Shown here: positions 8,363-32,404 of the stretch, in pieces | Layout: each line of letters opens with the position of its first letter | Numbering within the stretch: position 1 is the first letter of the stretch | Notes under the pieces: model-generated | What the model was told of the DNA's origin: nothing | The model's input: the letters and a program-made list of their open reading frames with translations, nothing else | Databases searched by the model: none | Virus record (IMG/VR): IMGVR_UViG_2974514734_000001 | Location: 32,683-96,682 of that record | Source of the DNA: a virus | Taxonomy: Duplodnaviria; Heunggongvirae; Uroviricota; Caudoviricetes; Ackermannviridae | Length of the DNA: 64,000 nt | Reading direction: 5' to 3' (one strand) | Position numbers and translations under genes: made by a program

Positions 8363-8363
8363 A

Positions 8364-8984: not shown

Positions 8985-9047
8985 GATCCATTTTCTGAAT
9001 CCGCGTATCAGGAACACTAAAACGTTCTCCACAGCAAAGGTGCTAAC

Positions 9048-9545: not shown

Positions 9546-9583
9546 GTTATAATACAGAGAGTTGAAACAGCAGGAAATAAACC

Positions 9584-10039
9584 ATGAGTGAAACAAAATT
9601 TGAAACAATGAAGACCGAAGATATAATGGCGGAATTAGATCCTCTTATTTCGGTGAATCCTGAAGACATGAATTTAGACCAAATATCATTGAAAATTGGT
9701 CGTTCATGGATGGCTGTCCAGCGCCATTACATTCGTGAAGGGCGTTATCTAGAATTTTTGACAGGAAAATTCCGTCAAATCGATCTTTATTTACGTCGGT
9801 ATTATGCAGGGGAATTACCACCCAACGTTTATGTTGAACGCCCATTAAAAGTTCGCCCCCTGAAATCCGATATAGATGTATGGGTAAAAGCAGATGATGA
9901 TTATATCGAATTGTCTAGCATGCTTCAAGAGCAGAAAGCCAAAGTCAAGTTCATCGAAAGTTGCTTAGATCGTTTGAACAAACTCGGCTATGAAGTGAAA
10001 AATGCGATTGATTGGCGAAAATATTTGGACGGTATGTGA
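9584..10039 (+). CDS. uvsY: recombination mediator UvsY-like
   Basis: 151 aa; …YYAGE… and C-terminal FIESCLDRLNKLGYEVKNAIDW resemble T4 UvsY …YYSGRG… / LDFCSGALDAIKSRGFAIKHIQD; adjacent to uvsW as in T4. Confidence 0.65.
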   Translation: MSETKFETMKTEDIMAELDPLISVNPEDMNLDQISLKIGRSWMAVQRHYIREGRYLEFLTGKFRQIDLYLRRYYAGELPPNVYVERPLKVRPLKSDIDVWVKADDDYIELSSMLQEQKAKVKFIESCLDRLNKLGYEVKNAIDWRKYLDGM

Positions 10040-10785: not shown

Positions 10786-10813
10786 ATACTCCATAATATT
10801 GGGGGAATTAGTG

Positions 10814-12319
10814 ATGTCAGAAATTCAAATAATCAAAGTTAACGAAGTGCGCATGCGAATCTTGGCGGAGGACTATATCCGCGAAGAACTCAACGATTAC
10901 TTCAAATTTGAAGATCCTAATTTCCAACCGAATCCATTCAGTAAATGGGATGGCGTGGTACGCTTGTTCACAAAGAGTTCTGGCCTTATAGACATCGGTC
11001 TGTTGTTTGAGGTGTTTAAGTTCTGTAAGATGAATGGTTACACCATCAAATTAGATCCCGCCTTAAAATATATCCAAGATATACCAGACGAAGAGATACA
11101 TACATTTATCAATTCCCTGAACGCTGTTTACCGTGATGAAAACAAGCAATACCAAATCGCAACAGTGCGTGACTATCAATTCGACTCAGTGGCCACAGCA
11201 ATACGCCAATCCAGATGCGTGCTAGAAGCGGCTACGAGCGCGGGTAAATCGTTTATTTTGTACATCATGGCGCGTTACTACAGGCAACGCAGAGAGGCAC
11301 TGGAAAGCAATCTCAAGACGTTGATCGTTGTACCTTCCATTCACTTGGTGACTCAGTTGTATGACAACTTTGAGGAATACAGCCACGGGACAGATTGGAA
11401 TCCGATGATGAATGTCCAAATGATATGTGAAGGTGCAACAAAGGATATATTCAAGCCCATAGTCATTTCCACTTGGCAGGGAATTCAGAATCAGCCCAAA
11501 GAATGGTTCCATCAATTTGGGGATATTGTTGTCGACGAAGTACACACATCTAAATCTGAAAAGCTATCTTATATCCTGAACAACTGCATTAATGCTGACC
11601 AAAGATTGGGTGTAACCGGAACCCTCGCGAATACAAAGGTTGCAGGGTTGCAGGTCGTTGCCCATTTTGGAGCATACCATAAAATTATTACAGCACGTGA
11701 TTTAATAAATCTTGGTTATGCCACAGATATCCATGTCAACATGATTGAAGTCATACATCCCATGGCGGATTGTATAGAAATGCATGGTGCTGAGTATCAA
11801 AAGGAAATAGAATTCCTCATAGCGAATGAACGTCGAAACGAATTGATAGCCAAAATGGCGTTGTCTTTGAAAGGTAACGTGGCCGTCATGTTCGAACGCA
11901 TTGACGCCCATATGATGATTGTTTATGAAATGCTTTCAGCCGTTAAGAAAAACGTATTTGTCATTAACGGCGAAGTTAAGACAGAAGTTCGTAAACAAAT
12001 TCAGGCAGCGATGGAAGAGGGTGAAGATATAACACTGTTGGCATCTTATGGGACCATGCAACAGGGCGTGTCGATCAAAAAACTTCATCATCTGATATTG
12101 GCACACCCGAGTAAATCCTATATTCGTGTCATACAGACTTTAGGGCGTCTCATGCGCCAGCACTCTTCAAAGGATGTTGCCAAGATCTGGGATTTAGTAG
12201 ACAACTTGCGTTACAAAGGATTTTCGTACAACCATGCCCTTAGACATTCACATGAAAGATATAAATTTTATCTTATGGAGCGACACCCTGTACAAATGAA
12301 GAAAGTGTCGCTCCAGTAA
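10814..12319 (+). CDS. uvsW: UvsW-like SF2 DNA helicase
   Basis: Walker A AATSAGKS, DEVH box (IVVDEVH), helicase C motifs; start at MSEIQ with GGGGGA RBS (track ORF starts earlier and overlaps the upstream gene). Confidence 0.85.
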   Translation: MSEIQIIKVNEVRMRILAEDYIREELNDYFKFEDPNFQPNPFSKWDGVVRLFTKSSGLIDIGLLFEVFKFCKMNGYTIKLDPALKYIQDIPDEEIHTFINSLNAVYRDENKQYQIATVRDYQFDSVATAIRQSRCVLEAATSAGKSFILYIMARYYRQRREALESNLKTLIVVPSIHLVTQLYDNFEEYSHGTDWNPMMNVQMICEGATKDIFKPIVISTWQGIQNQPKEWFHQFGDIVVDEVHTSKSEKLSYILNNCINADQRLGVTGTLANTKVAGLQVVAHFGAYHKIITARDLINLGYATDIHVNMIEVIHPMADCIEMHGAEYQKEIEFLIANERRNELIAKMALSLKGNVAVMFERIDAHMMIVYEMLSAVKKNVFVINGEVKTEVRKQIQAAMEEGEDITLLASYGTMQQGVSIKKLHHLILAHPSKSYIRVIQTLGRLMRQHSSKDVAKIWDLVDNLRYKGFSYNHALRHSHERYKFYLMERHPVQMKKVSLQ

Positions 12320-12320
12320 T

Positions 12321-12698
12321 TCATTTGTCTTGGTTCACATAGGCGGGGGTTGCCTCGCCTTCTTTGTCAGAACCGAACAAACAACCCATCGTGTTGATGC
12401 ATTGTTGTAGAACTTCCGGTTCAAGAATCTGACTCATCAGTTCTTCATTAGATTCCATCAGCGGGATGACTTTTACTTCCCGCGCCTGTCCTTGTTGGAT
12501 AATGCCGATATACAGACCTTTGGTGTCTGGCAGTAACGGGATCACCATCATTGGTGTCACGACAAACTTAGAAGTGCAATAGAGGCTGTGTAAGTAAACA
12601 CCTTTCAATGTCGGTTGTGCTTCTGCCAACATTGAAGACATTGAAAGGTTGGATTCTTGAACTTCCCCCACTGCATATAAACCTACGAATTGTTCCAT
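12321..12698 (-). CDS. hypothetical acidic protein (125 aa), convergent with and abutting uvsW
   Basis: AAGAGAG RBS on minus strand; stop 1 nt from the uvsW stop. Confidence 0.5.
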   Translation of the reverse strand: MEQFVGLYAVGEVQESNLSMSSMLAEAQPTLKGVYLHSLYCTSKFVVTPMMVIPLLPDTKGLYIGIIQQGQAREVKVIPLMESNEELMSQILEPEVLQQCINTMGCLFGSDKEGEATPAYVNQDK

Positions 12699-12905
12699 AT
12701 ATCACTCTCTTGTTAGTAAACATAACTACATAATAATCTCATGCTGTGTTTAGACCAAATAAATTATTTTGCTAGTTGAATAAAAATCGCTTTCTTGTTG
12801 AACAATCCGTGCGTAATATACGAGTTGTGAGCTTTGCGAGCAACGAGTATTATCACGAGCGAAGCGAGTAGACTGTTAAAGAAAGGTTTTATTAAAACAG
12901 AATAT

Positions 12906-12930
12906 TATAAATGCCGTCAGGCATTTATTT
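12906..12930. promoter_or_regulatory. palindrome ATAAATGCC-gtca-GGCATTTAT containing TATAAATG (late-promoter-like on both strands)
   Basis: Perfect 9-bp inverted repeat inside a 335-bp non-coding region. Confidence 0.3.
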
Positions 12931-13034
12931 ATCGCGCGTAGGGCAATTTATTACTTGTTCTATAACTACAAACACGCGATACTAATTTGCGTCAAATATG
13001 ACTTGAACCCCACTATATTTTGAGGATACAACTA

Positions 13035-13703
13035 ATGCAAGAGATCACTCTCTCCGAACGCACTTTACAACTGCTGGCTAACTTTGAAACCATCTGCCCC
13101 TCTATCGTTCTGGCACCTGGTAAAAAGTTGCGCACTGTTAACGATTCCAGTACAGTTATCGCTATTGCCGACATCGACGAAGACTTCCCGTTCGAATTCC
13201 CGATTCTGGATCTGACCAAATTGCTGGCAATCCAGCGTCTGCCGAGTTTTAAAGGCGGTAAAATTGAAATGTCAGAAGACCACATTTTGCTGAAAGGTGA
13301 AAACTCCCAACTGCAATTCTGGCGTTCCGCTAAAGAACTGACTGTCGTTCCGGCGGACAGCATCGATCTTACGTCTGTAGAATTTGAAGCAACGGTCACT
13401 CCTGAAAAAATGAAAGAGCTGACTCGCGCCTGTTCTACTCTGGGTCACAAAACTGTACGTCTGGTTGCCAGCGGCGGTAAAACTCGTCTGGTGGGCACGA
13501 CCACTACTATCGACAATTCCAACGATTACACTGTTGAGTTGGGTGAAACAACTCTGGGTGATTTTGCTATGCCTGTTGATGTGGTCAACCTGAAAATGAT
13601 CGAAGGCAACTACGTGATCCGCGCCTGTGCCGAAATGCAACTGGTTAACTTCCAATCCGCAGACGGCACCATCAACTATTACGTCGGCATGCAGCTGGAT
13701 TAA
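13035..13703 (+). CDS. 45: sliding clamp gp45
   Basis: 222 aa, GAGGA RBS; same length class and position as T4 gp45, followed by a terminator then gp44. Confidence 0.8.
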   Translation: MQEITLSERTLQLLANFETICPSIVLAPGKKLRTVNDSSTVIAIADIDEDFPFEFPILDLTKLLAIQRLPSFKGGKIEMSEDHILLKGENSQLQFWRSAKELTVVPADSIDLTSVEFEATVTPEKMKELTRACSTLGHKTVRLVASGGKTRLVGTTTTIDNSNDYTVELGETTLGDFAMPVDVVNLKMIEGNYVIRACAEMQLVNFQSADGTINYYVGMQLD

Positions 13704-13728
13704 TCAATAACGATTCGGCGCTTTATTA

Positions 13729-13755
13729 TCGGTGGCGGGGGTTTCCCCGCCCTTT
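13729..13755 (+). terminator. terminator GGCGGGGGtttCCCCGCC plus CTTTG
   Basis: GC-rich hairpin between gp45 and gp44, as in T4. Confidence 0.55.
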
Positions 13756-13781
13756 GAAACGTTTTATCTAAAGAGGCTGCA

Positions 13782-14771
13782 ATGTCTAACATCACTATCG
13801 TCACAGATCAATACGCGTGGGAAAACAAATATCGCCCTGACAATCTGGATGAGATCGTCCTCCCTTCAGACGTCCGTGCAAAAATCCATGGCTATGTTAC
13901 ATCAGGCAATGGAAACATCCCCTCAATGCTGTTCTATTCCCCTCAGCCTGGTACGGGCAAGACTACTTCTGCTCTGGCTGTGTGTAACGAAATCGGTTGC
14001 ATCAAACCGTTGATGATCAATGCGTCACTGGATAACAGCATTGATGTCATCCGTGACCGTGTTATTCAATACGCAACTGGCGTCAGTGTTTTCGGTGGCC
14101 GCAAAGTCGTTATCCTCGATGAAGTTGAGCGACTTTCCATGGCGGCGCAGGAATCCCTGAAAGGCATCGTAGAGAAAGTCTCCAAAAACTGCTCCTTCAT
14201 CCTGACGACTAATGCGAAACAGCGCGTTAACGAACCTCTGCGTTCCCGCTGTCGTGAAATTGATTTTATCTGGTCCGAAAAGGAAGCAGATGAAGTTAAA
14301 CTCCAATTCATGCGTCGTTGCGCAACTATCCTGACAGAGGAAGGTATTCCGTATGAAGCTGGTGTAATTGCTTCCATTGTGAAAGCATATTTCCCAGATA
14401 ATCGCAAAATTATGGGAACTCTTCAGGATAATGCCACCACGTTTGGTAAAATCGATGAACGCGCTCTGGCACAGGTTAAAGCAGGGGAATTCCAAGCGCT
14501 GGTTGATTTCCTGAAAACCAATGATTGGGCTGGGATGAAGCAGTGGGTGACCGACAACCAAAACTACATCACTGAAGATTTTTATTCCCGTTTCTTCCAT
14601 TTCTGCGTTCCCCAGAACAAGGAAAAGACTCCTTTGATTCAAAAAGAGTCAATCCCTGATCTGGTATGTGTCTGTGGTCAGTCTCAGATTGAACATCGTT
14701 CCGTCGGCGACGTCTGGTTACACGGCGTTTACTTCTTGACAAACGTCATGCTAAACATCAAATGGAAGTAA
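13782..14771 (+). CDS. 44: clamp loader large subunit gp44 (AAA+)
   Basis: Walker A PQPGTGKTT, DEVE Walker B, SRC motif (LRSRC). Confidence 0.9.
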   Translation: MSNITIVTDQYAWENKYRPDNLDEIVLPSDVRAKIHGYVTSGNGNIPSMLFYSPQPGTGKTTSALAVCNEIGCIKPLMINASLDNSIDVIRDRVIQYATGVSVFGGRKVVILDEVERLSMAAQESLKGIVEKVSKNCSFILTTNAKQRVNEPLRSRCREIDFIWSEKEADEVKLQFMRRCATILTEEGIPYEAGVIASIVKAYFPDNRKIMGTLQDNATTFGKIDERALAQVKAGEFQALVDFLKTNDWAGMKQWVTDNQNYITEDFYSRFFHFCVPQNKEKTPLIQKESIPDLVCVCGQSQIEHRSVGDVWLHGVYFLTNVMLNIKWK

Positions 14772-14775
14772 TATT

Positions 14776-15198
14776 ATGGCCGCTCCGTCACTGTTCGATT
14801 ACCTCGGTGCGTTGAATAGCACCAAAGAGAATCTGTTGATGACCGAAGACCCCGAAATCAGAAAGGCATTTGATCCTTTCATGACTCGGCGCGGCCTTGC
14901 TCAGAGTAAAGACACGCTTGTGGTTGCTGAACAAATGAACCGCTTCCATGCCATTACTCCTTGGATGCAATGGAACCTGGCGTTTCATAGCATTCCGGCA
15001 AAACGTCGCTATGACAAGTGGTCTAAGAAGGGAGCTATGGATCCTGATGTAAAATTGATTTCTGAGTATTATTACATCAGTCCTGAAAAGGCTTCAGAAT
15101 ATGTTCGATTCCTGCCGAAAGAAGTCCTGGCTGAAATCAAGGCGAAGGTCGAACGTTCCAACAGCAACGAAAAAGCCAAACCGCGCAAGGCTAAGTAA
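14776..15198 (+). CDS. 62: clamp loader small subunit gp62
   Basis: AKRRYDKWSKKG resembles T4 gp62 PRGKRYGKWAKL; immediately after gp44. Confidence 0.65.
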   Translation: MAAPSLFDYLGALNSTKENLLMTEDPEIRKAFDPFMTRRGLAQSKDTLVVAEQMNRFHAITPWMQWNLAFHSIPAKRRYDKWSKKGAMDPDVKLISEYYYISPEKASEYVRFLPKEVLAEIKAKVERSNSNEKAKPRKAK

Positions 15199-15227
15199 TT
15201 CAAATAATTGTTAAAGGGGTATGAGTC

Positions 15228-15692
15228 ATGGCGCGTAATACGCTGGACATCTTAAAACTTTCAGCTGTCAACGATGAGGCCAGCATTGTTGACTGTATGG
15301 TTGAAGTTCAATTGAACCAAGACAAACCAGGGATTTTCCTGGGTATCAAGGAAACGCTGAGTCGGATAGGGGTTAACACTCGTCAAGAGCCTAACACCTT
15401 GTATCAAACGTGCCATATTCTGCATAAATTTGGCAGATATCACATCGTGCATTTCAAGCATTTGTTCATGCTAGATGGGCACTACAACGGCTTTACGCGT
15501 GAAGATGTCCTGCGTATGAATCGGATTATACGGCTTCTGGAGCAATGGAATATGGTTAAGATCTTGCATCCGGAACAAATAACCGAAGTGGCTGACATGT
15601 CTCGGATCAAAGTTGTAAAACATGACCAAGTTTCTGAGTGGAAATTGGTTCCAAAATACACTATTCGCCCAAGTCGGGCAAAAAGCGAATAA
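15228..15692 (+). CDS. regA: translational repressor RegA
   Basis: …KETLSRIGVN…LYQTCHILHKFGRYHIVHFKHLFMLDG…EWKLVPKYTI matches T4 RegA almost motif for motif. Confidence 0.9.
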   Translation: MARNTLDILKLSAVNDEASIVDCMVEVQLNQDKPGIFLGIKETLSRIGVNTRQEPNTLYQTCHILHKFGRYHIVHFKHLFMLDGHYNGFTREDVLRMNRIIRLLEQWNMVKILHPEQITEVADMSRIKVVKHDQVSEWKLVPKYTIRPSRAKSE

Positions 15693-15708
15693 CTGGAGTC
15701 GCTATATT

Positions 15709-16578
15709 ATGACAACTACATTTAATAAAAACGTGAGATTGAATTTGGCTTTTGGTAATGCGGCTGGAGATATTACAGCCCCTGACTTCGGTAAAATTCG
15801 CAATCAGGCCAAACTGGTTCTGGAAGAGACCCGCGAATTACTGGAAGCGGCTTATTTCGACCACGAGGTGAAAATTGAGTTCACTGCATCTCCGCGAGTC
15901 CTGAAAGAACCTGCTGTTGTCGACATCAAAGACATTATGCGCCAGATTTTGGACGCTCAGGGCGACATCACAACAGTCAATGACGGCGTGGCACACATTG
16001 CTGGTTTTAATGGTGATGAATGTTTACAACGTGTGTTTGCCTCTAACATGAGCAAATTTATTCGCTCAGAAGATGAAGTCGGTCCGGCACTGGAATATTA
16101 TTATTCACGCGGTTTCCCAGATGGCCAGTTACGCGTTGAAGGTGAATTCCCTCAGGCATGCATCAAAGTGAATGAGACTGTGATGTGGAATGGCAAAGAA
16201 TATCCGAAAGGAAAATTCCTGAAAAACATGGCTGTGTTCAAAGAGCCTGATTTCTCTGATATGCTGACGAATACCCCTTCCCGTCAGATCAATGACATCG
16301 TTGTCAGCATGGCAATTGAAGAAGGACAGGTATTTGTTGATGATCTGAACGGCGTGGCGTTGGTATCTCCAAAAACGTTGGAAGTAATTCTTTCTATGGC
16401 AGTTGAAAAATCTTCTCGACCAGTAGATGTTAACGGCCAAATTGAAAGTTATGTGCCAGCGTATATCATTAACGATACCAATATGCCTAAGCTGTGTGGG
16501 GTGTGGGGTGCTAATGTTCGCGTATACGCGTGCGCACCTGTTCAAAACACTGTGACACACCTCTCTCGCTTCGATTAA
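15709..16578 (+). CDS. MazG-like (all-alpha NTP pyrophosphatase, T4 gp56 dCTPase-like) N-terminal domain protein with unknown C-terminal domain
   Basis: LVLEETRELLEAAYF … VFASNMSKF resemble the MazG EExxE… and …N..K motifs and T4 gp56 ADETRELYTSLGG; GGAG RBS; sits where T4 has gene 43. Confidence 0.4.
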   Translation: MTTTFNKNVRLNLAFGNAAGDITAPDFGKIRNQAKLVLEETRELLEAAYFDHEVKIEFTASPRVLKEPAVVDIKDIMRQILDAQGDITTVNDGVAHIAGFNGDECLQRVFASNMSKFIRSEDEVGPALEYYYSRGFPDGQLRVEGEFPQACIKVNETVMWNGKEYPKGKFLKNMAVFKEPDFSDMLTNTPSRQINDIVVSMAIEEGQVFVDDLNGVALVSPKTLEVILSMAVEKSSRPVDVNGQIESYVPAYIINDTNMPKLCGVWGANVRVYACAPVQNTVTHLSRFD

Positions 16579-16597
16579 TATAATCCGTTATTCACTA

Positions 16598-16630
16598 AAC
16601 AACAGAGGCTATAATGGCCTCTGTTTTTGT
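16598..16630 (+). terminator. terminator AACAGAGGCtataatgGCCTCTGTT plus TTTGT
   Basis: 9-bp stem, T-run. Confidence 0.6.
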
Positions 16631-16647
16631 ATTCTAGAGAGGATACC

Positions 16648-17850
16648 ATGAAAGATAAACCGTGTGACATTCCTTATTGCGGTGTTCGGGAAGCTAAAAT
16701 TAAATCTGCCAAACCCGTCCTGGACCAGCAGATTGTAAAGTGGTCTTACGAATGGATGCACGATCGTTACCAGATCCACGTCAAGAAGGACGTCCAGCGT
16801 CTTCCTGCTCCTTGGACGAATAATCCTATACTACGGCAGGTTAAGTTCTGTAACGTCCGGAGAGAGCACGACAGGCAGTCCCTCAACCTGATCAACAACA
16901 TCGTCAAGAACGACGCTCTGAGCATGGCCGACAAAATGTTCAACTGTGTTCTGTTCCGCATGTTCAATCTCTGGGATCCGATCAAGGTGGCGCTCGAGGG
17001 CGCTATGACGATTTCAGACTTTGCTAAAATCAACCTGGACGAGACCCGCGCCCGTCTTCAGAAGTTCGAGGCCGACGGTGGTAAGGTATTCACCAATGCC
17101 TTCAACACGGGCGGTCTGAAGCAATGCCTGGCTTTTCCTGAGCTGGTTGTCAACCACAAGGAGCAGCGCTTCGGTGGCATGATGGTTAAGGTACACCGTG
17201 TTGGCCAGGGTGTCGTGGATGAATTGGATTACAAGGTCGCCAAGAAGCTGGTTGAAGAGAATCCTGGGGAGTACACGATTGAGGGTTGGGAGCCGTACAT
17301 GCCAATGCGAGTCATCCGCTCTTTGAAGGCATTCGTCAACAAACACCCTCATTACTTTGATCGCCTCAGGGAATTTAGCCGTCCCGACTCTGTTTACCAG
17401 GCGATGTATGACGACATTGAGGGGCTTGGGCCATTCCTGGCATATCAGATCTGGGTGGACTTCACATACATCCCTGAGTATCCATTCAGTGAGAATCATT
17501 TCACTATCGCTGGTCCAGGTTGCCGTGCGGGTATTGACCTGATGTTCCTGGATAAGGACGGCATGACTCATGAAGAATGCATATTCTGGCTACGGGATAA
17601 TCAGGACGCAGTTTATGGTCCTCTTGGGTATAACAGGGAAGAATTTTGGTCTGCGGAAGAGCCTTGGGATCACCATTTAAATATAATGGCAGGAGAAAAT
17701 ATGTTTTGTGAACTTCAGAAATACACCCGTTGTGTAGAGGCTTTACAGCAAGGTAAAAAACCGCGCGGGAAGGTTGGATACGATGGGGAAGGACAACCTA
17801 AAGCGACGACATCTGGTTCTAAAAACCTACTAAATTTATTTAAAAAGTAA
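16648..17850 (+). CDS. hypothetical protein (401 aa)
   Basis: GAGAGGA RBS; no motif I can assign. Confidence 0.5.
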   Translation: MKDKPCDIPYCGVREAKIKSAKPVLDQQIVKWSYEWMHDRYQIHVKKDVQRLPAPWTNNPILRQVKFCNVRREHDRQSLNLINNIVKNDALSMADKMFNCVLFRMFNLWDPIKVALEGAMTISDFAKINLDETRARLQKFEADGGKVFTNAFNTGGLKQCLAFPELVVNHKEQRFGGMMVKVHRVGQGVVDELDYKVAKKLVEENPGEYTIEGWEPYMPMRVIRSLKAFVNKHPHYFDRLREFSRPDSVYQAMYDDIEGLGPFLAYQIWVDFTYIPEYPFSENHFTIAGPGCRAGIDLMFLDKDGMTHEECIFWLRDNQDAVYGPLGYNREEFWSAEEPWDHHLNIMAGENMFCELQKYTRCVEALQQGKKPRGKVGYDGEGQPKATTSGSKNLLNLFKK

Positions 17851-17909: not shown

Positions 17910-19061
17910 ATGTTTTACGAATTATTGATTTCTAAAGGCGGTAAACCGCATTTTATCAAGAAGTATTTGAGGATGATTCAATCTTTCAAATATCCTGATG
18001 GTGACTACACCGAATTACACCACATCCTTCCCAAGAGCATGTTCCCTGAATATTCCAAAGACAAGATCAATTTGGCAAGACTTACTGGCAGGCAACATTA
18101 TCTTGCCCATGTGTGTTTGGCCTTGGCTTTCCCGAATTCTGATATGGTATATGCTGTTCTTTTGATGAGCCGTGGGGGTAGGTATACACCAACGGGCATA
18201 AAATTTAATTCTCACCTTTACGAAAAGTTAAGGAAAGAATTTGGACAAAGAATATCCAAACTCACAAAGGGTGTCTCTAAATGCGTCGGGGCAAACAACC
18301 CAATGTATGGGAGAAGAGGAAAGAATAATCCCCAATATGGGTATAAGAGAACTCCAGAGCAAGTCAAGAAAATTACCAAAGGATTGATGAAAATCCATGA
18401 AAGGATGGCTTCTGATCCTGAATATAAAAGGCGGGTTTTAGAGAAACGCCGCGCCAACATGGATTTAGAACAATTTTCTGAACGTGCCAGGAAAGCTAAA
18501 CTTGGGGAACTCAATCCCAATTATGGGAAGGACTTAACCAACTCATTCACACCAGAGCAACGCGCCAAACAGAAAGAAAACGCTCAGAAAGGCATGTTGG
18601 CTAAGATGCCTTGGGAGAAGGGTAAATGGAACCCCGACAATGACGTATATTGGGAGAAAGCTGATCAATTCCTTGAAGCCCTGAATACGATGAAACGTTC
18701 AGAAGCCCTCTTGTTCGTGTATGGAACAAAAGATCTGAAGGCGTTTAATGCCACCAGTGGGATAATCGAACGTTTCAATAAAGGCTGGGAACCATTAAAA
18801 TGCGTAAAATGGTTAAAAAGATACAAGGGTGAAAAAATGAGCTGGAAATTGTTCAAACTGTGTAAAGCGACTGATGAGTTTCTTCTGAAAGCCCGTATGG
18901 AAGGACGTCTCGTGTACACTCCTTACCCAGGCACTACTCGGTTTTGCAACACGCTGAGGAAACAGAAATCAGTTTCTGGGCCGAGACGTTTGATGAAGCA
19001 GGGGATGCTGGCATACAACTCCGGTGATACTCGGCCTTGTGACGGCGGTAAGATCGTCTGA
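17910..19061 (+). CDS. HNH homing endonuclease (Mob-like) with NUMOD-type repeats
   Basis: ELHHILPKSM HNH motif; repeated NPMYGRRGKNNPQYG modules. Confidence 0.8.
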   Translation: MFYELLISKGGKPHFIKKYLRMIQSFKYPDGDYTELHHILPKSMFPEYSKDKINLARLTGRQHYLAHVCLALAFPNSDMVYAVLLMSRGGRYTPTGIKFNSHLYEKLRKEFGQRISKLTKGVSKCVGANNPMYGRRGKNNPQYGYKRTPEQVKKITKGLMKIHERMASDPEYKRRVLEKRRANMDLEQFSERARKAKLGELNPNYGKDLTNSFTPEQRAKQKENAQKGMLAKMPWEKGKWNPDNDVYWEKADQFLEALNTMKRSEALLFVYGTKDLKAFNATSGIIERFNKGWEPLKCVKWLKRYKGEKMSWKLFKLCKATDEFLLKARMEGRLVYTPYPGTTRFCNTLRKQKSVSGPRRLMKQGMLAYNSGDTRPCDGGKIV

Positions 19062-19070: not shown

Positions 19071-19111
19071 CCCTTTACTTCATTCTTCAATAACTCTTTT
19101 CAACGTATTAT
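19071..19111 (+). promoter_or_regulatory. degenerate PeSL-like early promoter region (CTTTAC…TTCAATAA…TATTAT), followed by a 5'UTR hairpin GCGCCC…GGGGCGC
   Basis: Shares TTTACTTC…TTCAATAAC with the other cassettes, but the -35/-10 spacing is disrupted by about 10 extra nt. Confidence 0.3.
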
Positions 19112-19180
19112 TGACCTCACTTAAACGAAGCGCCCTGGCAAACGGGGCGCACATTTGAACTGAAACAGGAAGACTATACC

Positions 19181-21202
19181 ATGGCAGAATTCAAACCCTT
19201 CGCAACGGCAGTTAATAACAACGTGCTGGCGATGTCCGCAACTGGTCTGTTCATGACCAATATCGATAAAGATGCTCTTTGGGATCTGTATCTGGCATCT
19301 TTCCCTGCTGGTACTAACCCGCTGTACCGCGAACGTACTGAACACGATTGCACCTGCTGTAAACAATTCATCCGTAACATCGGCGGTGTTGTCACCATCG
19401 ATTCAGAGCTGAACGTGATTTCCATCTGGGACAACATTGATCTGGGTAATGAATATGACGTGGTGGCTGCGGCTCTTTCCGCTTATGTCAAACAACACGC
19501 AATCGTCGATGTTTATTTTAACGATTCTGCCAAAGTCGGCCTGTCTCACAATCACGAATCTGGTGAAGATGGCAAAATCCGTACTTACAATCATTTCCAT
19601 ACCCAATTACTTGGTAGCTATGTTCTGCGTCCGGACGCAATCGCTTCGAAAAAAGGTGAAATCCGCCAGGCTATTGAATTGTTTGAACGCGGTCTGCGTG
19701 AAATTACTCTGGAATCAGCTGAAATCGTTCTGGAACTGATTGACCAGAATTCTCTGTATCGCGGCGCAGAACACAAAGCAGCAGTGAAGGGATTTGTTGA
19801 AACCAAAAAGGCATATGAACAAATCCCCGAATCAGCCCGTTCTCTGTGGACATGGCATACTGGATACCGTTCAAACAATCATGTTCCACACGGCATCCGT
19901 AACACAGTTATCGGCACTCTGCTGACAGATATCAGCGAAGGCGTGGAACTGGAAAAGGCTGTTAAGTCGTTTGAATCCAAAGTTGCTCCGGCGAACTACA
20001 AACGTCCGACCGCGCTGGTTTCAAAATCCATGATCGAAAACGCTCAGAAAGAAGTTATTGCTCTGGGTTTGGAAGACTCACTGGCGCGTCGTTATGCGGT
20101 TTATGATGATCTGACAATCAACAACGTTTTGTTCGCAGATCTGGCCGCTCAGAAAGCGATGGATCCGTTTGCACAGCTGGCCGCAGAAGTGAAAACTCCG
20201 ACTAAGTCCTTAGAAAAAGTTGAAGAGATCAGCGTTGATGATTTCCTGAGCAATGTTCTACCAAAAGCGCATTCAATGGAAGTGCTGGTAGAGAATTCTC
20301 ATACTAGCAACCTGATGTCCCTGGTTGCTCCGGCGAACCCAGATGCACCTAACCTGTTCAAGTGGAACAACGGTTTCTCCTGGTCTTACAACGGTGAAGT
20401 GGCCGATTCCATTAAAGAACGTGTAAAGGCTGCTGGCGGTAAAGTTGACGGGTATCTGCGCGTTTCCTTGGCGTGGCACAATAACGACGACCTCGATCTG
20501 CATATGTTCTTTAACAATATGGAGCACGTTTACTTCCGTGATCGTCGCTCTATGACAGGTGCCCATCTGGATATCGATATGAACGGTATGGATGGTATCG
20601 ATCCAAACCGCGCTCCGGTGGAAAATATCATCTTTACAGATGAAAGCAAGCTGCGCGATGGTGAATACCGTTTCGAAATCCACAACTACAATCAACGTGA
20701 AAAGATCGACGAAGGGTTTGAAGTCGAAGTAGAATACAAAGGCGCAACGCATCGTTTCAGCCATCCTGGCCTGAAAGATCAGGGGCGTATCACTGCAGTC
20801 ATCCTGACTGTTAAAGACAAACAAGTTGTTGGCATTAAGTCCGAACTGGCTAATGTTGATAAGTCTAAAGAAGTTTGGGGTATCAAGACTGCGACCTTCC
20901 AGAAAGTACAGCTGGTCCTGAATTCACCAAACCATTGGGATGGGGAGCAAACTGGTAACAAGCATGTGTTCTTCATTCTTGAAGGTTGTGCTAATCCTGA
21001 AGGTACTCGTGGTTTCTACAACGAATATCTGAAGCCAGAACTGGATAAACATCGTAAGGTTTTTGAAATGTTGGGTAGTAAAATGAAAGTCCAGCCGAAT
21101 GAAAACCAACTGTCCGGTCTGGGATTCTCGACGACGCAACGCAACCACGTGTTCGTAAAAGTGTCCGGCGCGTTTAACCGTACTGTAAAAGTCATTTTCT
21201 AA
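19181..21202 (+). CDS. hypothetical large protein (673 aa)
   Basis: AGGAAG RBS plus conserved TATACCATGGC context; no Walker motifs or known signatures recognised. Confidence 0.5.
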   Translation: MAEFKPFATAVNNNVLAMSATGLFMTNIDKDALWDLYLASFPAGTNPLYRERTEHDCTCCKQFIRNIGGVVTIDSELNVISIWDNIDLGNEYDVVAAALSAYVKQHAIVDVYFNDSAKVGLSHNHESGEDGKIRTYNHFHTQLLGSYVLRPDAIASKKGEIRQAIELFERGLREITLESAEIVLELIDQNSLYRGAEHKAAVKGFVETKKAYEQIPESARSLWTWHTGYRSNNHVPHGIRNTVIGTLLTDISEGVELEKAVKSFESKVAPANYKRPTALVSKSMIENAQKEVIALGLEDSLARRYAVYDDLTINNVLFADLAAQKAMDPFAQLAAEVKTPTKSLEKVEEISVDDFLSNVLPKAHSMEVLVENSHTSNLMSLVAPANPDAPNLFKWNNGFSWSYNGEVADSIKERVKAAGGKVDGYLRVSLAWHNNDDLDLHMFFNNMEHVYFRDRRSMTGAHLDIDMNGMDGIDPNRAPVENIIFTDESKLRDGEYRFEIHNYNQREKIDEGFEVEVEYKGATHRFSHPGLKDQGRITAVILTVKDKQVVGIKSELANVDKSKEVWGIKTATFQKVQLVLNSPNHWDGEQTGNKHVFFILEGCANPEGTRGFYNEYLKPELDKHRKVFEMLGSKMKVQPNENQLSGLGFSTTQRNHVFVKVSGAFNRTVKVIF

Positions 21203-21239
21203 TTGATTTTACCACAAATTCGTAATAAGGAACAATGAA

Positions 21240-21611
21240 ATGTTTGATCATGCAACCCGTTTAAAACTGCGTTTCAACTCTAACAAAGGTCTGCTGTCTG
21301 TTGAGCAGGTTTGGGATCTGAACCTGAATGCCCTAAACGAACTGGCGAAAGACCTCAGCCGTCAGGTGAAGGAAGCCGCCAGCGATGAAGAAGATTTCAT
21401 CGGCGTGAAAAGCGCAGTCGACTCTCAGTTACAACTGCGTTTCGATATCGTGAAAGCGATCATCGGTGTTAAACTGAAAGAACGTGACGAAAGCGCAACC
21501 GCCGCCGAACGTAAAGCGAATAACCAGGCGATCATGGAACTGATCCAGCGTAAGAAACAGCAGGAACTGGAAGGCCTCTCTGTTGAAGAACTGGAAAAAC
21601 TCCTGAAATAA
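21240..21611 (+). CDS. hypothetical coiled-coil protein (123 aa)
   Basis: ORF, AAGGAA RBS. Confidence 0.45.
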   Translation: MFDHATRLKLRFNSNKGLLSVEQVWDLNLNALNELAKDLSRQVKEAASDEEDFIGVKSAVDSQLQLRFDIVKAIIGVKLKERDESATAAERKANNQAIMELIQRKKQQELEGLSVEELEKLLK

Positions 21612-21632
21612 TCTGTCGGCTCCGGCCTGAGC

Positions 21633-21660
21633 AACCCCGCTATGTGCGGGGTTTCTTTTG
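21633..21660 (+). terminator. terminator CAACCCCGCtatgtGCGGGGTTTCTTTT (near-copy of 4364-4390)
   Basis: GC stem plus T-run. Confidence 0.7.
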
Positions 21661-21670
21661 GAGAAATATT

Positions 21671-21907
21671 ATGAAACAAATTACTAAGACAGTACAAATC
21701 ACCCAATATCAAACGGATGACGGCAGAGTGTTCGATACTCTTGGTCAGGCCGAACATTATGAGAAGATGAAGTCCGGTATTCGCAAGGTATGCTCTTCTT
21801 GTGATGGCAAAGGTCGCGACTCTCCGTCGGGCGACGGGCGTGATATGACGACTTGTCATTATTGTGGTGGTAAAGGCTGGGTAGAAAAGAAAGAGATATG
21901 GGGTTAA
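21671..21907 (+). CDS. small DnaJ CR-type zinc-finger protein (two CxxCxGxG motifs)
   Basis: CSSCDGKG and CHYCGGKG. Confidence 0.5.
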   Translation: MKQITKTVQITQYQTDDGRVFDTLGQAEHYEKMKSGIRKVCSSCDGKGRDSPSGDGRDMTTCHYCGGKGWVEKKEIWG

Positions 21908-22317
21908 TGAAACCTGTCATCTGTGATTACTGCGGTCAACCTGCCCAATACGTCGGGGGCGATGCTGTATACCCCCACCGCCCCGACCTCCGCAATCTGA
22001 AGTTCTGGGTATGCTCGCCATGCGACGCTCGTGTGGGTTGCCATACCCATGGGGATGGTAGACAACCTCTGGGAAGGATGGCGAATGCCGCTCTCCGTGC
22101 TGCTAAGCAGGAAGCTCATAGGTCGTTTGACCCTATCTGGAAAAGTGGGCAGAGGAGCAGGAGTGATGCTTACAGCTGGCTGGCTCATAATCTGGGGATC
22201 AAGAAGCGCGATTGCCATATCGGCTTGTTCGATATCGATATGTGCCGTAAAGTAGTCGCTGTGTGTAATCAACTAAAGGCACAAGATAATGTCAAAGGAA
22301 ATACAAGAAGCATTTGA
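21907..22317 (+). CDS. zinc-finger protein (DUF3268-like: CDYCG…IYPHRPDL…FWVCSPCDARVGCH)
   Basis: Start overlaps the previous stop (TAATGA). Confidence 0.45.
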   Translation: MKPVICDYCGQPAQYVGGDAVYPHRPDLRNLKFWVCSPCDARVGCHTHGDGRQPLGRMANAALRAAKQEAHRSFDPIWKSGQRSRSDAYSWLAHNLGIKKRDCHIGLFDIDMCRKVVAVCNQLKAQDNVKGNTRSI

Positions 22318-22540
22318 AAAATTATCTCAGGTAATGACCGACTGCAACCGCCGGAATTATTGTGATGAAGCGTATACCAAATTGAAAACTGCTGTTGAAA
22401 CCGAGCTGGCAGGTCTTTCCGTTTTCAAAGATATTCAGACCGAAGTGCTATATCTGTCGGATGAAGATTTAAGGCGTTGTCCCCGCAAGATTTACCAATT
22501 ACTGGATCGTTTGGTGAAAGTGGGGGTGAATAATGGGTAA
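22289..22540 (+). CDS. hypothetical protein (83 aa)
   Basis: ORF overlapping its neighbours by a few codons. Confidence 0.4.
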   Translation: MSKEIQEAFEKLSQVMTDCNRRNYCDEAYTKLKTAVETELAGLSVFKDIQTEVLYLSDEDLRRCPRKIYQLLDRLVKVGVNNG

Positions 22541-23258
22541 TCGTGAAGGGATTAAACTCACACCAGAACTTCTGAAGTCACATATTGCTGAAGTGATTTA
22601 TGAAGACCGTGAAGTTGGTGGTCACCGCGTCATTACATGCCATTTCAAGATGGACAATGGCTTTGTCGTCTGGGGTAAGAATAGTTCCACATCGGTAGAC
22701 CCTGCCAACTTCGATGAAGAAATAGGCAAGCAGCTGGCCTATGAAAAGACCCTTTCTCAACTGTGGGAACTGGAAGCATATCGCGCGATAGTAGAAAAGC
22801 AGATCATCGATGTGTCCGCCAAAGATGCTAAGATCAACATTGATGAATATGTGTCAGAAAGGGGATCGATACATGAGATGGGTGGTTCTGAATTCCTTGA
22901 GGGTAAAGGACAATCCGTCGTGTTTCGTCATCCCAAGGATCCAAGTCGGGGATTTCGAGTTGAATTTGTTCGCACCGATAATGAACGTTATGACGAACGG
23001 CGTAATGGTGAAGCAAGATCTTTGGTGGAAGCGTATCTTCGCTCGTTTATGACTTCTGAAGATCTAAATTCTGAACTTGTCTTGCGTTTGGCGAAAACGT
23101 GTAATGCTGCTTCAGGGGATTATCCGTGGTGTGACCTGTCTGAAGACAAACGCCAAGCAGCTTGTGATCGTGTTAAGAAATTCTTGTTAGATCCGAAAGC
23201 CCAACCTGGTGATTCCGTGGGGGCGCTGTATAGAGCCATCGTGGTGTCATACTTGTAA
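22533..23258 (+). CDS. hypothetical protein with possible Gp49/66-like N-terminal domain
   Basis: …CHFKMDNGFVVWGKNSS…PANFDEEIGKQLAYEKTLSQLWELEAY; from memory, low confidence. Confidence 0.35.
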   Translation: MGNREGIKLTPELLKSHIAEVIYEDREVGGHRVITCHFKMDNGFVVWGKNSSTSVDPANFDEEIGKQLAYEKTLSQLWELEAYRAIVEKQIIDVSAKDAKINIDEYVSERGSIHEMGGSEFLEGKGQSVVFRHPKDPSRGFRVEFVRTDNERYDERRNGEARSLVEAYLRSFMTSEDLNSELVLRLAKTCNAASGDYPWCDLSEDKRQAACDRVKKFLLDPKAQPGDSVGALYRAIVVSYL

Positions 23259-23525
23259 TTCTTCAAAAGTCTTTCAAAATCAATAACGTCCGGCAAATTG
23301 CTGGGCGTTTCAATTAATAAGCCAAGGTATAATGGCCCAATTGTAAAGCGAGGGAAATTACTTTGCCCAAACCATTTTTGCGTTCAGGAGTTGACTCTCT
23401 TGACTCACAGTTTAAACCCAGCGAAGTTTTAATCCAACAGATTGAAACTAATCGCGAATTCATAGAACACATGCTGGCAAAGCCGGAAGGTGAAGCCGCT
23501 CAAACCACCAAAGAAGGTAATAACG

Positions 23526-25742
23526 ATGATTGAATCATTAACATTTAAAAATGCGGTAGCAACTGTCGCGCCGTCTAACCATGTAATCGTTGTGGACATC
23601 TCCGGTTCCATGTATCGTTCACTTCCAGAAGTCCGTAAGCATCTGAAGGAAAATCTCCCGTCTCTGGTTAAACCAGAAGATACCGTCAGCATTCTTTACT
23701 TTTCATCCCGTGGTGATTTCGGTACGGTATTCGCTGGCCGTCAGATCAATAGCGCGACCGATCTCAGTGAAATCAATAAACTGATTGACCGCTTCCTGCA
23801 ACCGTCAGGTTGTACGGGATTTGTAGAACCTCTGAAGTTGGCTGCTGAAACCGCGATGAGCCTGAACAAACCTGGTTATGTCAATAACCTGGCGTTCATG
23901 ACCGACGGCTATGACAACTGCTGGCGCTCTAATGAAATCCTGGATGCCGCTGAAGTACTGCCCAAAGCGTTTGATAACATTACCTTCATCGAATACGGTT
24001 GGTACTGTAACCGCGAACTGCTGTCTCTGATGTCCGAGCGTTCTGGCGCGACCCACGTGTTTGCCGAAGGTCAGACTGAATATCAGACCGAATTGGAAAA
24101 TGTACTGAAATCATCTACGCCGAAAGTGGTTGTTGATGTCCCCCTGGTTTACACTCATGCCATCTACGTTGAAAACGGCGTGGCAACTGTGCTAGCCGTA
24201 CAACCAGATGAAGAACACCCGATTGGCCACGTCAGCATCCCTGAAAGCGTTTCTCAGCTGTGGGTTGTAAACCCCGACATGATCGACCAGCTGGATAATC
24301 TGGCAGACACCCAGGCGGCATACGTGCTGGCATTCTATGGCGTGTACACCATGGACGCCGATCTGGTCTGGGCCGCGCTGAAGAAGACGGGTGACGTCCG
24401 CTTCATCAAACAATACAGCAACTGTTTCACCAAGCAGGACTATTCCAACATCAAAGTCGATCTGACCCAGGCTATCGTGGATGAAACTCTGCGCGGCGTA
24501 GATGGCATCGATTACAATATGGTTCCAGCTGAAGATGCAACGACCATTGTTGATGTCTTGACCTACCTGGCCGAAGCCGATGTCTCTGTTGTCACTAAGC
24601 ATCCACTGTTCTCTTACAACAGTATTGGGCGCGGTACTGTACAGAAAGTTGACGACACCGAAGACAAATTGGCCGAAGAGATTGCGAATGCGACTTCTAA
24701 AGAAGAGCGTAAAGCCCTGGCGCTCAAACTGGCCGAGCACGAAGATTGGACCCCCGAATTCAATCCAGCAGATGATAAAGGGATTGTCCCGATTAGCAAT
24801 CTGGTCTATAATTCAGAACGTCCTAACATTAGTGTACAAACAGTTCAACACGGAACGGTTGTTGTACCCGAGTTCGTACAGAAGAAATATGAACTTCCTG
24901 AAGAGTTGGGAACCTGGCGTTATCGCAATTACACCATTGTCAAGGATGGTATCATCAACCTGAAAACAATGCCTATTACTGCGGATTCTCCGATTGTTCG
25001 GGCTAAGGTGGCACAGGATTTGACTGCCATGGGTGTTCATGTGTTTGGTGGACCGGAAGTCTTCATTGTAAATCTGGAAAGTGTCCCAATGGTTAACCGC
25101 GCTATGACAAAGAATATCAGTGCTGCTGAATTCTTTGCAGACAATGTGCGACGTGAAGCATTGAAGGCGAAACAAAAAGTTCTGAAATTCTATCGTGATG
25201 AGCTGGTTGGTAAAGGCAATGCTGCTGGTTTGGCTTCAAAATATGGCAAAGAAGCGGCTGATTTCCTGTCAGCAAACGGCATTCGCGACTATGGATTTTC
25301 ACCGAAGACTTCTTCTGTAGAATCAACCGATGTCTATATGAGTCGTGAATTGAATGTGAAAATCAAAGGCGCATCTTCACTGCCGAGCATCGCGTCTGTT
25401 ATCAAAAAACAGACGGACGGTAAAAAACTGAATGTCGCTGATCAGCTGATCGCTAATGCCCTGGCTGAATACAATGCATTCGTTAAATCACCGATGATCA
25501 CCAGTGTACCGGAAGAGACTCAGAAAAAGCTGATCGAAAGTTGGATTGGTGATGCAGCAAAAGCAGCTATCAACGAAGTTCGCGCTCTGAACAAAACGCT
25601 GTCCAAGGTAGTTTATGGGATTGTTGCAGGCCATGGTTGGTTTACCGACCTGGATTTGGAAGAATCCACTATGGATGTGGAAGTTGATGGGGTGAAATAC
25701 ACCGTCACTGCCGAACTGGCCGAAAAAGAAGTCAAAATCTAA
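23526..25742 (+). CDS. von Willebrand factor A (vWA) domain protein, 738 aa from the ATG start (track ORF 23490-25742 is 750 aa from an upstream GTG)
   Basis: MIDAS motif VVDISGSMY (DxSxS) plus downstream T/D residues; ATG at 23526 with GAAGG RBS (the track uses an upstream GTG at 23490). Confidence 0.65.
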   Translation: MIESLTFKNAVATVAPSNHVIVVDISGSMYRSLPEVRKHLKENLPSLVKPEDTVSILYFSSRGDFGTVFAGRQINSATDLSEINKLIDRFLQPSGCTGFVEPLKLAAETAMSLNKPGYVNNLAFMTDGYDNCWRSNEILDAAEVLPKAFDNITFIEYGWYCNRELLSLMSERSGATHVFAEGQTEYQTELENVLKSSTPKVVVDVPLVYTHAIYVENGVATVLAVQPDEEHPIGHVSIPESVSQLWVVNPDMIDQLDNLADTQAAYVLAFYGVYTMDADLVWAALKKTGDVRFIKQYSNCFTKQDYSNIKVDLTQAIVDETLRGVDGIDYNMVPAEDATTIVDVLTYLAEADVSVVTKHPLFSYNSIGRGTVQKVDDTEDKLAEEIANATSKEERKALALKLAEHEDWTPEFNPADDKGIVPISNLVYNSERPNISVQTVQHGTVVVPEFVQKKYELPEELGTWRYRNYTIVKDGIINLKTMPITADSPIVRAKVAQDLTAMGVHVFGGPEVFIVNLESVPMVNRAMTKNISAAEFFADNVRREALKAKQKVLKFYRDELVGKGNAAGLASKYGKEAADFLSANGIRDYGFSPKTSSVESTDVYMSRELNVKIKGASSLPSIASVIKKQTDGKKLNVADQLIANALAEYNAFVKSPMITSVPEETQKKLIESWIGDAAKAAINEVRALNKTLSKVVYGIVAGHGWFTDLDLEESTMDVEVDGVKYTVTAELAEKEVKI

Positions 25743-25750: not shown

Positions 25751-25775
25751 GGCGGGGAAACCCGCCTTCATTTTG
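25751..25775 (+). terminator. terminator GGCGGGGaaaCCCGCC plus TTCATTTT
   Basis: GC stem, T-rich tail. Confidence 0.5.
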
Positions 25776-25779: not shown

Positions 25780-26097
25780 ATGCTTATGTCAAACAAACCA
25801 ACTTATGTTGAAGTAATGCGTGTTCTGGCTCAGTACGCTTGTGACAACCTGAACATGGAAACTTGGCGCGACGGTGACCATAAAGAAAAGTTCGATAATA
25901 TCGACGACAACATCGATGCGTTGGCTCCTCTTCGGGCCAAGAGCGATCTCGGCGGTGATGATCTTGACATGATTGAACTCATCATGGAAGTTGAAGAACA
26001 ATATGATGTTGAAATCAGTGATGAATGGGTAGGCAAACATGGTGATGATCCCACGCTCGGCGAATTAGCTGAATTGGTAGTTGCCCTCCGCAAATAG
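25780..26097 (+). CDS. acyl carrier protein-like acidic protein lacking the phosphopantetheine-attachment serine
   Basis: LGGDDLDMIELIMEVEEQYDVEISDE corresponds to ACP [26 protein letters not shown], with the DSL Ser replaced by Asp. Confidence 0.5.
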   Translation: MLMSNKPTYVEVMRVLAQYACDNLNMETWRDGDHKEKFDNIDDNIDALAPLRAKSDLGGDDLDMIELIMEVEEQYDVEISDEWVGKHGDDPTLGELAELVVALRK

Positions 26098-31407: not shown

Positions 31408-31613
31408 TCGGGTTAATCCGTTATCTGTTCATATTCGTAATAACAACATTCATTTTATTTTTCTTTTTCAAATACTTGAAAGAGACTAAAATCTACCGGA
31501 GTAAACGTTGGCGCAAACGGGTGAGAGTAACTTTCCTACTGCTGATTTCTTCGGTTACAATAACTGCACTCACGTTGGGTGCTTATATTTACATTTTTGA
31601 AGGAGTACATTGA
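31404..31613 (+). CDS. small integral membrane protein (2 predicted TM)
   Basis: Hydrophobic; translationally coupled to the SPFH gene (TGATG). Confidence 0.4.
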   Translation: MIGLIRYLFIFVITTFILFFFFKYLKETKIYRSKRWRKRVRVTFLLLISSVTITALTLGAYIYIFEGVH

Positions 31614-32404
31614 TGTTCAAGAAACTGGTATTTGGCGCAATTATGGTCCTAGCAGCAAGCCTTCTTTCAGGCTGCGGCGGTGTTATCGATGAAGGAAACG
31701 TCGGTGTTCGAACCCAATGGGGTGAAGTGGACATGAACCCTGTAACAGCGGGGATCTACACCAGCTTTGTTTCAAGCGTGGATGTTTACACGACCAAAGA
31801 AGCCGTCGTGAGTCTGACGAAAATGACGCCAAAGGCCAAAGACAACCTGACCTTGGAAGATCTGGATGTGGACGTTTATTACACACCGAACGTCGCGAAG
31901 GTTCCTTGGTTCCATACCAAATTTGCAGGTCAGAGCGCTGAACTCGGTGACGGCACGATAGCGGTGGGATTCAACCTGGTTAAAACCGCCGCAGCATCCT
32001 CAACGATGGACGCCGTTTCCTCTTTGGATTCTATGACAATTCACACCCAACGGGCTGAGTTAGAAAAGATGATCAAGGAACGCACCCAGCAGCAATTGGA
32101 AACTGCTGCGCCTGGCATGTTCACAATCACACGTGTGTTGGTGAAAAAGGCGCTGACAGATCCTTCGATTGAGCAATCTATCCGTGATAATGTCATGGCC
32201 GACAAACGTTTGGATACAGCAAGAAAGAACGTTGAAATTCGAGACCAAGAAGCCAGGGCGAATCAGAAACTGACGACATCTCTGACACCTGAATATTTAC
32301 AACACGAATATAACATGGTGTTGCAATCTTGCGCCAACAGCGGGAAATGTACTCTGATTGTTGATGGTTCAGGCTCAAGTAAAATGCTAAACGTCGGCAA
32401 ATAA
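31613..32404 (+). CDS. SPFH/band-7 (stomatin/HflK-like) domain lipoprotein
   Basis: Lipobox LLSGC; EGNVGVRTQWGEV… SPFH-type N-terminus. Confidence 0.55.
   Translation: MFKKLVFGAIMVLAASLLSGCGGVIDEGNVGVRTQWGEVDMNPVTAGIYTSFVSSVDVYTTKEAVVSLTKMTPKAKDNLTLEDLDVDVYYTPNVAKVPWFHTKFAGQSAELGDGTIAVGFNLVKTAAASSTMDAVSSLDSMTIHTQRAELEKMIKERTQQQLETAAPGMFTITRVLVKKALTDPSIEQSIRDNVMADKRLDTARKNVEIRDQEARANQKLTTSLTPEYLQHEYNMVLQSCANSGKCTLIVDGSGSSKMLNVGK

Follow-up and report, generated by a model that had tools for sequence, protein, structure and literature searches.

It is proposed that the interval 19181-25742 of a 64,000-nucleotide window from an Ackermannviridae virus (IMG/VR record IMGVR_UViG_2974514734_000001, positions 32,683 to 96,682) probably carries not a single gene pair but two phage modules that are independent, conserved and non-structural. 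The first is a two-gene cassette comprising the gene for a 673-aa DUF8224 protein and the 123-aa gene immediately downstream of it; the second is the gene for a 738-aa von Willebrand factor A (vWA) protein with a MIDAS (metal ion-dependent adhesion site). Between 19000 and 26000 the DNA matches Salmonella phage barely (MT074477, Kuttervirus, Ackermannviridae) with 100% identity, and CBA120, 3HA11 and many further Vi01-like phages match this interval at 94-98% identity. Both large genes have open frames, belong to catalogued families and already carry GenBank annotations: barely_50 is labelled hypothetical, barely_56 a putative vWA-containing protein. An original prediction made from the letters alone had described them as an unusual pair of a vWA protein and an orphan, transcribed together; its sequence-level statements mostly stood, and the pairing and co-transcription found no support.

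The gene for the 673-aa protein (19181-21202, + strand) starts at an ATG and has the predicted ribosome-binding site, AGGAAG, 8 nt upstream. PHROG 1735 matches residues 1-673 (E = 0), and all close and distant homologues carry PF26675, which is DUF8224; the protein is an ordinary full-length member of that family. The constant partner of this gene is not the vWA gene but barely_51 (21240-21611, + strand), encoding a 123-aa protein, itself a regular full-length member of PHROG 2018, that the original prediction passed over. By BLAST clustering, a 123-aa homologue lies directly 3' of DUF8224 on the same strand in 76 of 80 IMG/VR loci (median gap 29 nt) and immediately after it in 58 of the 63 cellular-genome loci whose DUF8224 ORF (open reading frame) is full-length, the median gap being 26-29 nt over viral and genome loci. 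Profile hidden Markov models detected the homologue within the locus in 77/80 viral and 57/68 cellular-genome loci. No other neighbour is conserved around DUF8224 in the 80 IMG/VR loci.

The two genes form a self-contained cassette with a conserved leader of its own and, in many phages, a terminator of its own. The leader contains a stem-loop at 19130-19150 (+ strand; 8-bp stem, 5-nt loop), which is preserved through compensatory substitutions in related phages; RNA folding of 19105-19195 gave -21.6 kcal/mol (z = -2.4). Further upstream, at 19086-19115 (+ strand), eight Ackermannviridae upstream regions share the element TTCAATAA-N-TATTATTGAC, in which TATTAT resembles a -10 and the -35 is poor, and the arrangement of TTCAATAA...TATTAT/TATATT followed by the stem-loop is conserved in the Ackermannviridae. 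A promoter role for this element is plausible. A sigma-70 scan gave no site 5' of 19181, and the 18 sites it found across 16-28 kb are no excess over the 17.6 expected from shuffled sequence. The TTCAATAA...TATTAT element occurs a single time in the window and hence is not a repeated cassette; the 5' untranslated hairpin predicted for this gene is borne out. At the other end, a terminator-like hairpin, AACCCCGC-TATGT-GCGGGGTT followed by TCTTTTGG (21633-21653, + strand; 8-bp stem, six G-C pairs), stands 22 nt past the stop of the 123-aa gene and closes the unit. A strict terminator-like hairpin follows the 123-aa homologue at 23 of 59 loci, compared with 0 of 59 in a coding control, and phiCbK has an annotated terminator at the equivalent position after the small gene.

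The family is very large and its lengths are uniform: matches to DUF8224 fall into 4704 clusters (50% identity) at E < 1e-3 and 1239 at E < 1e-30, with a mean column identity of 43% among 73 diverse members. It is present in 559 phage records, among them Ackermannviridae, CR3/CR9/KNP2/Mydo-type myoviruses, phiCbK-like phages, Bastille-like Bacillus phages, N4-like Vibrio and Xanthomonas phages, Ma-LMM01 and Cellulophaga phages. A search of cellular-genome contigs with a 12-sequence query alignment located it in 68 loci of cellular assemblies, including Bradyrhizobium, Paenibacillus and Limnoglobus chromosomes and contigs of Methanobrevibacter metagenome-assembled genomes. The cassette has moved among very different bacterial viruses, and probably among archaeal ones too. 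Its circulation in archaeal viruses or proviruses is suggested by the methanogen assemblies: Methanobrevibacter and Methanosphaera contigs (L215, L216 and L218-L220) carry DUF8224 at 35-38% identity, and in at least L220 a homologue of the 123-aa family follows. With more than 4700 clusters (50% identity) from enterobacteria to methanogens, DUF8224 and its 123-aa partner are among the more widespread uncharacterised two-gene cassettes of tailed phages. Breadth and conservation make the cassette deserving of experimental attention, and its function, if determined, would annotate thousands of phage genomes.

As the original prediction stated, no catalytic or nucleotide-binding motif can be recognised in the 673-aa protein. 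There was no match in Pfam (in a scanned copy that lacks PF26675), NCBIfam or PADLOC, no PDB relative in single-sequence or profile searches, and in PHROGs only the family of unknown function; homology to a T4-type structural or replication protein, sought in Pfam, NCBIfam, PADLOC and PDB, was likewise not found. The 123-aa protein also has no Pfam, NCBIfam or PADLOC match and no PDB relative, and its PHROG family too is of unknown function. Because none of these families has an assigned function, membership does not explain the role of either protein, and look-ups in the literature and of cluster names for PF26675, the PHROG and VOG identifiers and DUF2135 returned no functional information.

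The cysteine cluster HDCTCCKQF (aa 55-63; 19343-19369, + strand), which had been noted as a C-x-C-C motif, is a true hallmark of the DUF8224 family, of the form [H/Y]xCxCC. In an alignment of 73 homologues C57 and C60 are each conserved in 72 and C59 in 53; H138 is invariant (73/73), and C603, the only cysteine outside the cluster, is kept in 65. Invariant arginines are also present in the N-terminal region. The cluster is possibly a metal or redox site.

The AlphaFold2 (AF2) model of the 673-aa protein has a mean pLDDT of 88.3, and points to three parts: an N-terminal part of about 400 aa, a TerD/DUF2135-like β-sandwich and a C-terminal β-domain. Searched as whole models against PDB folds, the protein contains a TerD-fold domain, which the original prediction had overlooked; no PDB fold matched the N-terminal ~400 or the last ~100 residues, so that most of the protein is without a fold match, and a Foldseek search of BFVD returned uncharacterised phage proteins only. 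The predicted acidic β-sandwich (aa ~425-560; 20453-20860, + strand) carries DLDLH...DIDMN...ENI motifs, its bounds being approximate since they follow where the model is β-rich and where the motifs lie. Its closest known relatives are the TerD family (Klebsiella TerD, 2kxt; Streptomyces SCO6318, 2qz7) and DUF2135/YfaP. In DUF8224, however, this fold is one domain of a three-part protein, there is no Pfam or NCBIfam TerD match and only two weak DUF2135 matches, and neither the surroundings of the cassette nor the genome annotation contains TerB, TerC, TelA or TerF. Short DUF8224 forms of 539-548 aa lack the TerD-like domain entirely and still keep the [H/Y]xCxCC cluster.

The second module is barely_56 (23526-25742, + strand; PHROG 2426). 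The predicted vWA ORF ending at 25742 is confirmed, whereas its length is not: the 750-aa version is a mechanical reading from the first in-frame GTG at 23490, and the start is most likely the ATG at 23526, giving 738 aa, because residue 13 is where the PHROG 2426 profile sets in, this ATG is the start given in GenBank, GAAGG lies 7 nt upstream of it, and it overlaps the stop of a conserved 56-aa ORF. That ORF (23363-23533, + strand; PHROG 8656, E = 9e-40; gp166 of FrontPhageNews) is absent from the annotation of the barely record. The overlap of start and stop at 23526-23533 (ATGATTGA) suggests that the vWA gene is probably translationally coupled to it.

PF00092 matches the vWA domain (residues 32-196 in 750-aa numbering) with 32.2 bits, the cutoff being 23.8, and this domain is the only part of the protein that Pfam, NCBIfam and PDB searches recognised. 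Counted from the ATG, the MIDAS consists of DISGS at aa 24-28 (23595-23609), T97 (23814-23816) and D127 (23904-23906). Among 71 aligned homologues, with identities as low as 33%, T97 and D127 are invariant and D24, S26 and S28 reach 90% conservation or more; the motif is thus intact, as predicted, and the objection that it might prove non-conserved fails. The AF2 model (mean pLDDT 88.5) shows a Rossmann-like vWA fold, and the vWA domain with the β-sandwich that follows it (aa 1-~250; 23526-24275, + strand) aligns over 263-293 residues with ArnB, 4fx5, ITIH1 and Sec24. The phage protein extends this ArnB/Sec23-24-type core to phages. The remaining ~490 aa (24276-25742, + strand) correspond to the long stretch of unknown sequence noted originally: the region is family-specific, has no Pfam match in 25 members and no PDB sequence or profile match, and is strongly conserved among family members, with motifs such as IYRNYTIVKDGI, GIRDYGFSPK and ESTDFYxSKELNVKIKGLSSLPS. 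Compared with ArnB/ArnE of Sulfolobus, the Catenulispora vWA protein 4fx5 and the Sec23/Sec24 core (architecture of ArnB from PMC12852372), the phage protein is twice as long, has no ArnA-type FHA or zinc-finger partner, and no kinase or phosphatase context is seen around it. Zinc-finger-like ORFs do occur near the vWA gene in 22 of 79 loci. As a candidate ArnA-like partner they were rejected, since they are not conserved (9 of 56 distant loci) and lie 5' of the gene only in Kuttervirus and a few other lineages. A terminator-like hairpin, GGCGGG-GAAA-CCCGCC followed by TTCATTTTGA (25751-25766, + strand), is located just past the vWA stop.

A phage-borne vWA protein next to a large orphan had been called unusual. 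To carry a vWA protein of this family is not unusual for phages: by tblastn it is present in 504 phage records, which include Ackermannviridae, T4-like phages of the RB43/KP15/Miro/GAP161 type, pf16, PBS1 and Rhizobium T4-like phages. No neighbour of the gene is conserved across 77 loci. In RB43 it lies in the plastic region between nrdC and gene 25, and in Rhizobium phages between recombination nuclease and gyrase genes.

The two large genes do not behave as a pair. They are not adjacent: 2.3 kb with a hairpin and six ORFs lie between them, and the terminator-like hairpins at 21633-21653 and 25751-25766 make it doubtful that they are transcribed together. The vWA family is found within 10 kb of DUF8224 only in Ackermannviridae and in loci L073 and L247, and is absent from 73 of 80 DUF8224 viral loci and from all 68 genome loci. 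The host and phage distributions of the two families differ, pf16 carries both genes about 100 kb apart (L039, L119), and a profile-profile comparison of the two proteins revealed no shared domain.

Systems in which vWA proteins work with a MoxR AAA+ ATPase (RavA-ViaA, CbbQ-CbbO, NorQ-NorD, and phage MoxR with DUF2201) differ from the barely arrangement, where no MoxR-type ATPase is adjacent or detectable and the vWA domain is N-terminal, matched by generic VWA models and not of the DUF2201 type. The MoxR-like AAA+ protein for which a check elsewhere in the genome had been advised was found neither in the annotation of all 202 barely features nor, by Pfam scan, among nine unannotated mid-size barely ORFs, two of which are thymidine-hypermodification enzymes; a crude Walker A scan of barely also gave no MoxR-type candidate, a scan that missed some known ATPases and is not exhaustive. 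PADLOC had no match for any of nine interval proteins, and no conflict-system components were found that would sustain the idea of a vWA conflict system.

On this basis we propose two separate roles. In the first module, the 673-aa and 123-aa proteins would work as a complex in which the acidic β-sandwich may bind Ca2+ or another metal. Since more than 40% identity is kept across phages of unrelated hosts (Proteobacteria, Firmicutes, Cyanobacteria and Bacteroidetes, and also in Methanobrevibacter contigs), this complex could have a cytoplasmic target that all hosts share, perhaps one related to nucleic acids or nucleotides. In the second module, the vWA protein may be a stand-alone Mg2+/MIDAS-dependent adaptor that functions without a MoxR ATPase, clamping an acidic residue on a protein of host or phage in early or middle infection; it would be a tractable bait in the search for a host target. 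Both large genes lie among early or middle genes, the barely cassette following a 5-hydroxymethyldeoxyuridine (5-hmdU) DNA kinase gene and replication genes, with the kinase, clamp loader and regA all upstream of the interval.

Several points weigh against this reading. The two large genes are on the same strand with constant synteny in all Ackermannviridae loci examined, and they co-localise within 5-7 kb in two unrelated lineages, represented by L073 and L247; given these two facts, a loose functional link between them is possible. The hairpins resemble terminators by consensus match only, and T4-like phages commonly show read-through. The pTM values of the two models, 0.58 and 0.69, leave the packing between domains uncertain. 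The nucleic-acid-metabolism context of DUF8224 is sporadic, at 2-6 of about 150 loci per enzyme, and the mechanistic steps proposed above are drawn by analogy.

A more specific view of the first module is that DUF8224 and the 123-aa protein constitute a widely mobile counter-defence or nucleic-acid repair complex, whose [H/Y]xCxCC/His centre and Ca2+-binding sandwich would act on a universal target. We regard this as a tentative and rather unlikely specification. Compatible with it are the moron-like autonomy of the cassette, with its own leader and terminator, the identity retained across distant hosts, and the occasional RtcB, PNK/ligase and Nampt neighbours. As a still weaker addition, the cassette might cooperate with the vWA adaptor in the Ackermannviridae. 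Enzyme genes near the cassette amount to RtcB at 2 loci, ligase at 6 and Nampt at 5 of about 150, counts for which there is no baseline for comparison, and an enrichment of RtcB, PNK, ligase and Nampt was rejected as unsupported at 2-6 loci per enzyme. The RtcB RNA ligase gene adjoins the cassette upstream in L180 (6604-10400; Bradyrhizobium sp. Tv2a-2) and downstream in L121 (10001-13737). Short DUF8224 forms are located between ribonucleotide reductase and PNK/DNA ligase genes in Stenotrophomonas and Pseudomonas siphophages.

In N4-like contexts a MoxR-like AAA ATPase directly adjoins the cassette, namely in Vibrio phage pVa5 (L161, 5995-9537) and in L242 (6966-14023). An SPFH/Band-7 protein is encoded near the cassette in both, and a DUF2201 (metallopeptidase-vWA) protein in L242; in barely, an SPFH protein is encoded about 10 kb downstream (window ~31613-32404). 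That DUF8224, a vWA-type protein and an SPFH protein recur in two unrelated phage families may be due to chance. A conserved ATPase partner of DUF8224 was considered and rejected: pVa5 and Kioshi do have an AAA+ gene after the cassette, but the pattern is not general.

It is improbable that the 673-aa protein, through its TerD domain, and the vWA protein cooperate functionally in a conflict or stress system, in the manner of TerD and the vWA proteins TerF/TerY. Such components do co-occur in Ter operons, phages included (PMC7824862, PMC8386662), the 673-aa protein does have a TerD-like domain, and the constant Ackermannviridae synteny, the closeness of the two genes in L073 and L247, and the MoxR-like ATPase and DUF2201 genes of the N4-like loci all speak for a link. 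The distribution argues the other way: in vWA-seeded viral loci outside the Ackermannviridae-like group DUF8224 lies within 10 kb in L073 only, the great majority of DUF8224 loci have no vWA family member, and the two genes of pf16 are far apart. Generic VWA models match the barely protein, a TerF-type vWA model and other Ter components are not among the matches, and six variable ORFs and a terminator-like hairpin stand between the two large genes. In L247, a 135-kb unrelated contig, 8001-17145 has on one strand a PIF1-like helicase, a vWA protein, a 1436-aa ORF without a Pfam match and, some 5 kb on, a short DUF8224 protein (547 aa).

Slightly less probable again is a role of the vWA protein in virion assembly, or as a minor structural protein, like the MoxR-vWA tail-assembly pair of Acidianus two-tailed virus. 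Some Klebsiella phage records label vWA homologues "minor tail protein", a part in jumbo-phage assembly has been proposed for vWA co-chaperones (PMC7824862), and in a marine T4-like clade of about 23 contigs the vWA gene has the prohead protease, scaffold and major capsid genes next to it; those head genes, however, are on the opposite strand, and in barely, RB43 and the Rhizobium phages the vWA gene lies among early or DNA-metabolism genes. The search for a MoxR partner of the vWA protein came up empty, and the protein is not among the structural labels from LIMEstone proteomics that are reused in the barely annotation. In mass spectrometry of Sajous1 virions (PMC10892097) a vWA protein gave one spectrum, and two products named "putative DNA-directed RNA polymerase", the authors' name for the 673-aa homologue, gave three and one, compared with hundreds for the major structural proteins; these products were equated with the interval proteins by product name and not by sequence. 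With 1-3 spectra against hundreds, both large proteins are expressed but probably not packaged in virions. The polymerase name itself, given to the 673-aa family in the annotation of FrontPhageNews, Gloob, KNP2 and Se-B and favoured by product names in some GenBank records only (for FrontPhageNews, putative functions came from structural (Phyre2) and operon analysis; PMC10892097), is effectively refuted, as Pfam, NCBIfam and PHROGs gave no RNA polymerase family, PDB sequence and profile searches gave no match, and neither a polymerase fold nor a polymerase motif was found.

The six ORFs between the two large genes encode, in order, the 123-aa protein, a 78-87 aa zinc-finger protein, a DUF3268 protein, an 83-aa product, a gp49/66-like protein and the 56-aa product. 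Several of these small ORFs are variably present among Kuttervirus relatives. From 21671 to 23258 (+ strand) they form a variable block of accessory ORFs identified by Pfam and PHROG matches: a DnaJ-type CXXCXGXG zinc-finger miniprotein (21644/21671-21907, + strand), which occurs in a few Kuttervirus genomes only, a DUF3268 zinc-finger protein (21898/21907-22317, + strand), the 83-aa ORF and a protein like N4 gp49 and Sf6 gp66.

Directly 3' of the vWA gene, at 25780-26097 (+ strand), lies a gene annotated as encoding an acyl carrier protein. The product is very acidic (isoelectric point 4.2) and its canonical DSLD is replaced by GGDDLD, with GGDELD or FDELD in 22 of 22 Ackermannviridae homologues checked; as the serine for phosphopantetheine attachment is absent, it cannot be a conventional acyl carrier. 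On the other side of the interval, a 383-aa HNH/NUMOD3 homing endonuclease gene (17910-19061, + strand) is an insert in barely between the 5-hmdU DNA kinase gene and the 673-aa gene. It is not at this site in most relatives, and the leader of the 673-aa gene is kept 3' of the insert. The gene preceding the insert (16627-17850, + strand) encodes a 5-hmdU DNA kinase helical-domain protein (PF18723) and is the directly upstream thymidine-hypermodification gene. Elsewhere in MT074477, 142724-143965 and 144507-145400 encode an amino acid:DNA transferase (PF18724) and 5-hmdU DNA kinase 2 (PF18747), both of which are annotated as hypothetical only.

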